Source: Patescibacteria group bacterium
GTDB lineage: Bacteria > Patescibacteriota > Patescibacteriia > Patescibacteriales > UBA12465
NCBI GenBank assembly: GCA_041651095.1
Contig: JBAZJV010000003.1
Span: forward strand, 16,293 to 80,292
Direction: 5' to 3'
Length of the DNA: 64,000 nucleotides
The translations under genes were made by a program, and so were the position numbers. Below the pieces are notes generated by a model. It worked only from the letters and a program-made list of their open reading frames with translations. It searched no databases and was not told where the DNA came from. Numbering within the stretch: position 1 is the stretch's first letter; each line of letters starts with the position of its first letter. Below are positions 36,199 through 36,283 of this stretch, piece by piece.

Positions 36199-36213
36199 TA
36201 CTTCGCATAATGT
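36199..36213 (+). repeat. Inverted partial copy of the dif-like site (arm plus 3 nt of centre)
   Basis: TACTTCGCATAATGT is the exact reverse complement of 36269-36283. The downstream half (CGATGGTTTTTG) is degenerate. Confidence 0.7.
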
Positions 36214-36253
36214 CGATGGTTTTTGTTTATTGGCTTGTTTTTATCTAAAAAAA

Positions 36254-36283
36254 TACTTCGCTTAATATACATTATGCGAAGTA
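36254..36283 (-). other. dif-like Xer recombination site
   Basis: The minus strand reads TACTTCGCATAA-TGTATA-TTAAGCGAAGTA. CGCATAATGTATATTA is identical over 16 nt to the core of E. coli dif (GGTGCGCATAATGTATATTATGTTAAAT). The arms are near-palindromic. The site lies 111 bp upstream of the xer-like gene. Confidence 0.65.

Follow-up and report, generated by a model that had tools for sequence, protein, structure and literature searches.

A dif-like site beside a host xer gene as the probable insertion site of an inovirus-like element in a Patescibacteria genome

The dif-like site and its locus

In this study, which was based on a 64,000-nt stretch of contig JBAZJV010000003.1 from a Patescibacteria group bacterium (hereafter the window, meaning the whole stretch) and on the comparison of its xer locus with related loci, we analysed a dif-like site that lies upstream of a gene for a Xer-type tyrosine recombinase, together with the inovirus-like element that borders on it. 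The two arms of the site are referred to as the xer-proximal (P) and the distal (D) arm, and the following features of the locus are needed throughout:

30140..30997, plus strand: ftsQ-like host gene (POTRA_1, Pfam), the conserved left flank of the dif locus
31006..31146, plus strand: small conserved host membrane open reading frame (ORF) between ftsQ and dif, which aligns with the phage-free loci L002, L008, L009 and L012
31167-31186: terminator-like hairpin after the small membrane ORF
31205..31234, plus strand: hybrid site, probable attL, with the host D arm TAGGTGTATTAA (31205-31216), the centre TATACA (31217-31222) and a degenerate phage arm CTTTTAAACACT (31223-31234)
31223..36271, genes all on the minus strand: inovirus-like element of 5,049 bp with a GC (guanine plus cytosine) content of 0.47, absent from the closest relatives; a putative IMEX (an integrative mobile element that exploits Xer)
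36199..36213, plus strand: phage-borne half-site TACTTCGCATAA+TGT, an inverted exact copy of the host P arm and the three adjoining centre nucleotides, followed by unrelated sequence
36254..36283, plus strand: hybrid site, probable attR, with a phage arm TACTTCGCTTAA (36254-36265), the centre TATACA (36266-36271) and the host P arm TTATGCGAAGTA (36272-36283)
36395..37351, plus strand: host Xer-type tyrosine recombinase of 318 aa (Pfam Phage_integrase 4.6e-42 and a SAM-like N-terminal domain)

Read on the minus strand, 36254-36283 is TACTTCGCATAATGTATATTAAGCGAAGTA, i.e., TACTTCGCATAA TGTATA TTAAGCGAAGTA, in which the arms are inverted repeats with one mismatch. Within it, CGCATAATGTATATTA is identical at 16 of 16 nucleotides to the established core of the Escherichia coli dif, GGTGCGCATAATGTATATTATGTTAAAT. 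The latter string is present in published papers, e.g., one on dimer-resolution sites (PMC3025954). The architecture is that of a dif site, with two inverted arms of approximately 11-12 nt, a 6-nt centre and the resemblance to a known dif. In the window, the 30-nt site was the sole match at up to three mismatches, for which the expectation from shuffled sequences was 0, and there was no further copy of it besides the phage-borne copies. The start codon (ATG) of xer begins 111 nt past the end of the site. The 15-mer TACTTCGCATAATGT is found exactly at 36199-36213 on the plus strand and elsewhere in the window only inside the 30-nt site; when up to two mismatches were permitted, there were three matches compared to the 0.14 expected, and none of 100 shuffles reached three. 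The original prediction for this region, which reported the 30-nt sequence, its identity with the dif core, the single mismatch between its arms, its distance from xer and an inverted copy of 15 nt, was thereby reproduced in all of these points, and these features are non-random.

The native form of the site was characterised in 80 related loci that were centred on xer and covered approximately 20 kb per genome (10 kb on each side). The order ftsQ, small ORF, site and xer was conserved, usually with alr upstream, and a 30-nt dif-like site was present between ftsQ and xer in 75 loci, with a gap of approximately 0-1,100 nt to the xer start; at least three of the five loci that had no site have insufficient upstream sequence. 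The P arm TTATGCGAAGTA was identical in 71 of the 75 sites and differed by one base in the remaining four, the inner TTAA of the D arm was invariant, and the centre was TATACA or TCTACA in nearly all of them, apart from a few variants. In the D arm, the outer 8 nt were variable (TAGGTGTA, TACGTGTA, TACGTTAA, TACTTTGA and TACTTCGC). The closest relatives, in which the Xer is 85-94% identical, have the asymmetric site TAGGTGTATTAA TATACA TTATGCGAAGTA. Palindromic arms (TACTTCGCTTAA TCTACA TTATGCGAAGTA) were found in a distant subclade (L062, L065, L067, L068, L072, L075-L077 and L081); in L065, L075, L077 and L081, for which ftsQ was located, the palindromic site has no insertion, and ftsQ was not located in L062, L067 and L068. 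The site was essentially single-copy, i.e., approximately one per 20-kb locus across the 80 genomes and 1.4 Mb of related sequence. These observations align well with the original prediction of a Xer/dif-type site that is linked to xer, and the site is also present in relatives that are free of the phage.

Some additional features of the related loci deserve mention. In approximately 20 loci, dif and xer were 0.25-1.1 kb apart, and most of the remaining loci had a spacing of 40-150 nt. In L072 and L076, small cassettes (0.5-1.1 kb) whose ORFs are on the minus strand lie between the main site and xer, and exact P-type half-sites (TACTTCGCATAA TATTAT...) occur directly 5' of xer in both (L072:1242-1253 and L076:9890-9901). 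Moreover, the alr-ftsQ-dif-xer locus of the Falkowbacteria type was found under unexpected labels, e.g., in L006, L028, L048 and L078, including 'uncultured Gammaproteobacteria', 'Bacillota', 'Planctomycetota' and 'Methanosarcinaceae archaeon'; these genomes are probably mislabelled or mis-binned.

Hybrid junctions and a second integration

The string TAGGTGTATTAATATACA, identical to the D arm plus centre that L002 and other loci have in their native dif, occurs once in the window, at 31205-31222, and continues into CTTTTAAACACT. At the opposite end of the element, the distal arm of the 36254-36283 site differs from that of the closest relatives at six of the eight outer positions. In a multiple alignment, both flanks in the window were collinear with the empty sites of L002, L008, L009 and L012, and the alignment switched exactly at the centre, with the break at the left junction directly after TATACA, which delimited the two hybrid sites given above and confined the crossover to TTAATATACA, a string common to both junctions. 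In the closest relatives, the element is absent and the ftsQ-dif distance is 183-510 nt; no Zot or other phage gene was found in 78 of the 79 other related loci. The reconstructed attP is TACTTCGCTTAA-TATACA-CTTTTAAACACT, which has one good arm, the whole centre and one degenerate arm, and the reconstructed junction strings are TACTTCGCTTAATATACACTTTTAAACAC for attP, TAGGTGTATTAATATACATTATGCGAAGTA for attB and TACTTCGCATAATGTATATTAATACACCTA for the recombinant that the half-site would give.

Based on these junctions, we consider it highly probable that 36254-36283 is the attR of an inovirus-like prophage that was inserted in the dif-like site 5' of xer, and it is presumably the working dif of the host genome. 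On sequence grounds, integration is shown as a reciprocal exchange inside the centre of the site by an element that carries no detectable recombinase. The window corresponds to bases 104236-168235 of an ENA metagenome contig of 233,933 bp. An assembly chimera is an unlikely source of the junctions because this contig was assembled with k=141, according to its name, and the hybrid junctions are exact and reciprocal. The earlier proposal that an inovirus-like block had integrated through this site is thus borne out by the empty-site relatives and the exact junctions. Its companion claim, that the 30-nt sequence with palindromic arms is the native chromosomal dif, has to be revised: the sequence joins a phage arm to the host proximal arm, the site of the closest relatives is asymmetric, and palindromes are native only in the distant subclade of Falkowbacteria. 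The near-palindromic arms at 36254-36283 therefore appear as the outcome of arm replacement and not as a native trait of the closest relatives.

A second case was found in L060, a Falkowbacterium whose Xer is 70% identical and which has another Zot element between ftsQ and xer. The Zot of this element is 45% identical to that of the window, and the element encodes a PF23343 Rep. Its attL is TACGTGGATTAA TATACA TTTTCAAACCCA and its attR is TACTTCGCATAA TATACA TTATGCGAAGTA, from which the attP TACTTCGCATAA TATACA TTTTCAAACCCA is obtained, again with a good arm, the whole centre and a divergent arm. The plan that is common to both attP sites comprises a P-type arm, TATACA and a degenerate arm that starts with TTTT(A/C)AAAC. 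By its junction sequences, the L060 insertion appears to be an independent second IMEX at the same site with the same attP design.

Recombinase, route of integration and alternative explanations

The only recombinase near the element is the conserved Xer. In the NCBIfam models, it scored 221.6 bits for XerC and 220.3 bits for XerD, each under its own cut-off, 189.7 bits for the archaeal XerA (cut-off 220) and 116 bits for XerS (cut-off 267), and XerH was obtained only as a weak PDB match. The closest solved structure is that of XerD (1a0p). With XerC and XerD as the best models at approximately 220 bits, the enzyme does not fall into the XerS/XerH family. Database matches numbered in the thousands; the best 120 were 80-94% identical, and the named ones among them belong to Patescibacteria or Candidatus Falkowbacteria. 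The gene also occupies the same locus in the phage-free relatives. Because of these Patescibacteria and Falkowbacteria matches and the XerC/XerD-type scores, the recombinase is best regarded as a conserved host Xer-type enzyme of its own lineage and not as a phage integrase. All nine ORFs of the element of at least 55 aa were scanned with Pfam and PHROGs and five (larger) ones with NCBIfam, and no recombinase was found among them.

The host Xer probably catalyses the integration, as the adjacent conserved xer and the dif-like architecture suggest, and the element would be an IMEX because the host Xer, and not a recombinase of its own, would integrate it. The exact insertion at a dif-like site, the hybrid flanks with a common centre and the lack of its own recombinase are the features of such an element. 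The substrate would be the double-stranded replicative form because the attP consists of just one site, in which a good arm and the full dif centre are joined to a degenerate arm, and which resembles the sites of TLCphi and of the gonococcal genetic island (GGI). The good arm of the phage copies the strong P arm of the host and, as set by the orientation of the centre, would face the weakly conserved D arm. The resulting attR would have two strong arms beside xer, by which the host function would be kept or improved; sites with two strong arms occur natively in the palindromic subclade, where they presumably function, and its uninterrupted sites indicate that an orthologous Xer can work on two P-type arms. 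The attL, in turn, would have two weak arms, and excision would be disfavoured. The logic of these arms is that of the left-element/right-element mutant lox pairs.

The half-site at 36199 is an exact copy of the 15 nt of dif that are best conserved (the P arm and ACA/TGT), and it matches them in virtually all of the related loci. In Xer and Cre chemistry, a monomer that is bound to the P arm cleaves beside the arm and TGT, which is swapped in the first strand exchange. We infer that the phage carries it as a second Xer-binding half-site, which could serve as an alternative attP in the opposite orientation (of the VGJphi/CTXphi kind), could be an accessory Xer-binding site or could be a relic. 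A promoter scan gave nothing decisive for a regulatory role. Tandem duplication was rejected as the source of this copy, as the flanks of the arms are dissimilar beyond the arm (z-scores -1.5 and -0.5).

The original prediction had explained the same copy differently, as a possible remnant of a folded single-stranded attP of the CTXphi type, with the 30-nt palindrome as the native dif. Two observations are in line with this: the copies have opposite orientations in the prophage state, at a distance of 55 nt, and some sites of distant Falkowbacteria are natively palindromic. In the reconstructed circle, however, the half-site repeats the phage arm in direct orientation, 55 nt away, and the two are therefore unable to pair in single-stranded DNA; minimum free energy folds of both strands of the reconstructed junction (DNA parameters) had no pairing of the two sites and no unusual stability (z-scores -1.4 and -1.3). 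The half-site is also not present in the L060 IMEX or the free relatives, and the site of the closest relatives is asymmetric, with a D arm that is missing at 36254-36283 and sits at the other end of the prophage. The direct orientation, the lack of a hairpin and the missing half-site leave the folded attP unsupported, and the explanation as a whole, including the native palindrome, is very improbable. The possibility that the phage itself contributes the recombinase as its integrase, with the site as its attachment site, so that 31.2-37.4 kb would form one mobile element unrelated to dimer resolution, is barely credible. It would suit the annotation of the gene as 'phage integrase family', the GC content of 30-39 kb, which is below that of the surroundings, and the PNP_UDP_1 gene after xer, which was not found in the other loci. 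It is contradicted by the presence of the recombinase and its upstream site beside ftsQ in approximately 75 phage-free genomes (67-94% identity), by the XerC/XerD/XerA-like scores and by the insertion boundaries, which leave the recombinase outside the element.

A further alternative is that the phage uses, through the host recombinase, a xer-linked Xer-type or operator site that is not the terminus dif, e.g., a palindrome for autoregulation or a hotspot dedicated to integration. The GC skew of the window has no change of sign, the skew at four-fold-degenerate sites has no replication signal, xer lies at 9% and 21% of two complete chromosome records, and small cassettes and extra half-sites gather around the site in several genomes, all of which would suit such a site. 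Against it stand the identity of 16 nt, among them the entire centre, with the core of the E. coli dif, the canonical architecture of arms and centre, the orientation of genes, which converges on the site in 34 genomes, and the essentially single-copy occurrence in the related sequence. The dif-xer linkage is also typical of the single-recombinase XerS and XerH systems (PMC5357621). We regard this alternative as unlikely.

The evidence that the site is a terminus-located dimer-resolution dif is indirect and suggestive, and we hold this with somewhat less confidence than the interpretation of the element as an IMEX. Gene orientation converges on it: across the 34 genomes, 98% of the genes on the left are on the plus strand and 73% of those on the right are on the minus strand, compared with 92% and 64% in the window, where the gene right-adjacent to xer is not common to the other loci. 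In 35 full-length loci, the skew had a mean of +0.096 to the left of the site and of -0.027 to its right, and the left value exceeded the right one in 32. In the window only, the four-fold GC skew, referenced to the coding strand, was approximately -0.06 for majority-strand genes (plus on the left, minus on the right) and approximately -0.23 for minority-strand genes, a pattern that was not reproduced in the pooled loci. The native site is probably the dimer-resolution site of a xer-linked system with what is probably a single recombinase, and we infer the single-recombinase status from the natively palindromic sites and the linkage to xer.

Several observations weigh against the interpretation of the site as a terminus dif of a single-Xer host that was exploited by a mobile phage. 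The raw GC skew of the window is positive on both sides of the site, and the shift between left and right in the related loci does not constitute independent evidence of replication because the skew tracks the coding strand, as the four-fold-degenerate-site analysis revealed. In two complete Falkowbacteria chromosomes, xer is at 85 kb (OW818634.1; 896 kb) and at 204 kb (CP066698.1; 977 kb), in records whose origins are not given. No second Xer paralogue was found within 10 kb of xer in the 80 loci or in the window, and only that span was visible. The weakness of the D arm and of the degenerate phage arm (X) is deduced from conservation only. As for the mobility of the phage, its attP junction pattern and its 478-aa protein had no match in IMG/VR, and an element that has no Rep could be replication-defective or helper-dependent.

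In its most extended form, the interpretation would be that a Rep-less lineage of filamentous phages of approximately 5 kb exploits the xer-linked, single-recombinase dif of Patescibacteria through an arm-swapped attP, by which an asymmetric dif is turned into a symmetric, functional one and a dead site with two weak arms locks the prophage in place, that the half-site offers a one-strand route, and that Caudoviricetes exploit the same system. With all of these components, it is a tentative proposal that we consider doubtful as a whole.

Comparison with known systems and gene content of the element

Three paradigms of IMEX integration have been described in Vibrio, and the attP of TLCphi and GGI comprises a consensus arm, a centre that is fully homologous to dif and a divergent second arm (PMC5357621). 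Like the element described here, TLCphi from Vibrio cholerae and the GGI of Neisseria have no recombinase of their own, are integrated at dif, have one arm and the whole centre of the attP that match dif with a divergent other arm, and leave one good and one degenerate site after integration. However, their hosts have XerC and XerD, compared to an apparently single recombinase here, and their good arm does not face a weak arm of the host but its own counterpart. No XafT-like (DUF3653) activator was detected in the element using Pfam, PHROGs and NCBIfam, unlike in those systems. Moreover, TLCphi is a satellite, whereas the element here carries morphogenesis genes (Zot and coat) and no Rep. CTXphi and VGJphi are likewise filamentous phages that are integrated at dif via the host Xer, as the present element presumably is. 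They use partial homology of the centre for a single strand exchange on the XerC side, and the half-site at 36199, with its arm and three centre nucleotides, has partial-centre homology of this kind. Unlike in these phages, the site that was used here has full homology of the centre, and the two phage sites are direct and form no hairpin in single-stranded DNA.

The XerS/difSL modules of streptococci and lactococci and the XerH/difH modules of Helicobacter and Campylobacter also have dif adjoining the recombinase gene, as in 75 of our 80 loci, and one strongly and one weakly conserved arm. They differ in the family of the recombinase and in that the core here is a XerCD-type dif sequence; the centre has 6 nt as in the classical dif, while that of difSL has 11 nt. 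The archaeal XerA/dif system has a single Xer and a 28-nt dif whose arms are nearly palindromic. The recombinase here remained below the XerA cut-off, and the present system differs from the archaeal one in its bacterial host and in the linkage between site and xer. In Legionella, integration of LME-1 at the dif of XerL leaves an intact and a modified site, the latter of which stabilises the integrated form (PMC9765430), and the attL here should disfavour excision in the same way. In both cases, a dif mimic on a mobile element reveals an unrecognised dif/Xer system of the lineage; LME-1, however, belongs to another phylum, recombinase lineage and site sequence and is not an inovirus, and the present case is known from sequence alone.

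There is no new principle in these findings since both IMEXs and single-recombinase dif modules that are linked to xer are familiar (PMC5357621), the discovery of the dif of a lineage through a mimicking mobile element has a precedent (PMC9765430) and inoviruses have already been predicted in the Candidate Phyla Radiation (CPR) (PMC6813254). In our full-text literature search, no paper describing dif, Xer or IMEXs in Patescibacteria was found. The modestly novel details are the attP with swapped arms, the additional half-site and the phage lineage that has no Rep. The significance lies in the definition of a candidate dif/Xer module for a CPR lineage (Falkowbacteria), by the logic that was used for the Legionella XerL/dif, and in a precisely bounded inovirus-like prophage, which provides a firm virus-host assignment for uncultivated episymbionts. 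Two apparently independent integrations give a testable attP design, and the invariant 15-nt half-site (ACA+TTATGCGAAGTA) can be used as a marker in metagenome-assembled genomes of the CPR, both to locate the presumed terminus and to recognise integrated elements.

The main genes of the element are as follows:

31661..32515, minus strand: Zot/pI-like morphogenesis ATPase, 284 aa (Pfam Zot 4.5e-13; PHROG 197, Zot-like, 1.6e-15)
32880..33155, minus strand: 91-aa multi-pass membrane protein in a pVI-like position (from sequence and position; no family match)
33157..34593, minus strand: 478-aa secreted pIII-like protein (N-terminal signal-like sequence and C-terminal hydrophobic anchor; no family match)
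35363..35647, minus strand: 94-aa candidate major coat protein (signal peptide, hydrophobic helix and C-terminal RRRR)
35842..36066, minus strand: first gene of the phage block, with a 74-aa product that is conserved among related phages

Several small membrane or zinc-ribbon proteins are also encoded. Homologues of the Zot protein were found in small circular viral contigs, and the C-terminal part of the 478-aa protein has 30-36% identity to the equivalent large ORF of related phage contigs. The candidate coat protein, whose gene is followed by a terminator-like hairpin, had a weak match to PHROG 1109 ('core encoded pilin', E 0.008), the coat family of CTXphi. The pI/Zot ATPase, the small coat-like ORF with a basic C-terminus and the small circular relatives are the hallmarks by which the element is assigned to the inovirus-like group.

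The closest relatives of the element are L096 and L097 (Zot 62-66% identical) and L099 (Zot 47%), which are contigs of 4.7-4.9 kb and are considered to be circular because of their terminal direct repeats of 123-127 nt. No Rep/pII was found in the element using Pfam, PHROGs and NCBIfam, nor in the window by tblastn with the Rep of L060, and the L060-type Rep was not found in L096, L097 or L099 either. The 74-aa protein is 47% identical to an ORF of L082/L097 that lies approximately 640 nt after Zot, and the reconstructed circle of the element has an equal spacing. Because the relatives also have no such Rep and L082/L097 shares this spacing, the prophage looks like a complete genome of a Rep-less lineage and not like a remnant. 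At the position of Rep, the element and L096, L097 (=L082) and L099 have a non-coding stretch of approximately 640 nt, and a PF23343-type Rep follows Zot in the more distant relatives L060, L083, L084 and L104-L106. An attP matching dif was absent from the circular relatives L096, L097/L082 and L099; at the equivalent position, L097 has a different palindrome (AACTTCGCTTGG CTAACG CCAATCGCGAAGTT), which may serve as a terminator or as the attP for a different host. Look-ups of the exact proteins returned only the source contig and one fragment and no free circular form of the exact phage.

Further observations concern the phage sequences. The Logan contig L120 (SRR8542065_121645; 3.6 kb), from another assembly, is 100% identical to the interior of the prophage from 36208 to 32597. 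One of its ends falls 5 nt inside the half-site, for which a variant, low coverage or a real branch are possible causes, and the contig breaks at an exact 43-nt repeat with a period of 57 nt (32527-32626), which lies between an 87-aa ORF and the start codon of Zot. In the alignment of the Zot/pI proteins of the phage group (31661-32515 in the window), there was no obvious hydrophobic segment in the C-terminal half, which has a conserved zinc-ribbon-like motif, CxxC...CPK(H/C), instead. The contig Ga0265297_10000007 (881,714 bp) contains two Zot and Rep elements, L104 and L115, which are approximately 245 kb apart; neither is within 8 kb of a xer homologue, and related phages thus reside at other sites as well.

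A full or partial dif-like motif (TACTTCGCATAA TATACA ...) was also observed in small tailed-phage contigs from IMG/VR (L086, L087, L090, L091, L092 and L094), in some of which terminase, portal and head genes were detected. The motif adjoins terminase genes in L086, L087 and L090, and L092 is a complete genome of 13.8 kb with 127-nt terminal repeats and two sites that are 120 nt apart. It is possible that Caudoviricetes of the same host group exploit Xer or use it for multimer resolution. If this is true, a dif mimic beside terminase genes would mean that Xer exploitation in this phylum reaches the Caudoviricetes.

On the host side, the PNP_UDP_1 phosphorylase gene (37453-39426) lies just 3' of xer and has no counterpart in the 79 xer loci from other genomes. 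The GC content of 36-39.5 kb is approximately 0.44-0.47, which is below that of the flanks, and the region to the right of xer varies among genomes. Further stretches of low GC content were found at 17000-20000 and 46000-50000 (0.395-0.43 compared to approximately 0.50-0.56 elsewhere), and an 826-aa protein that is encoded at 20472-22952 had weak matches to TrwB/TraG/HerA-type ATPases.

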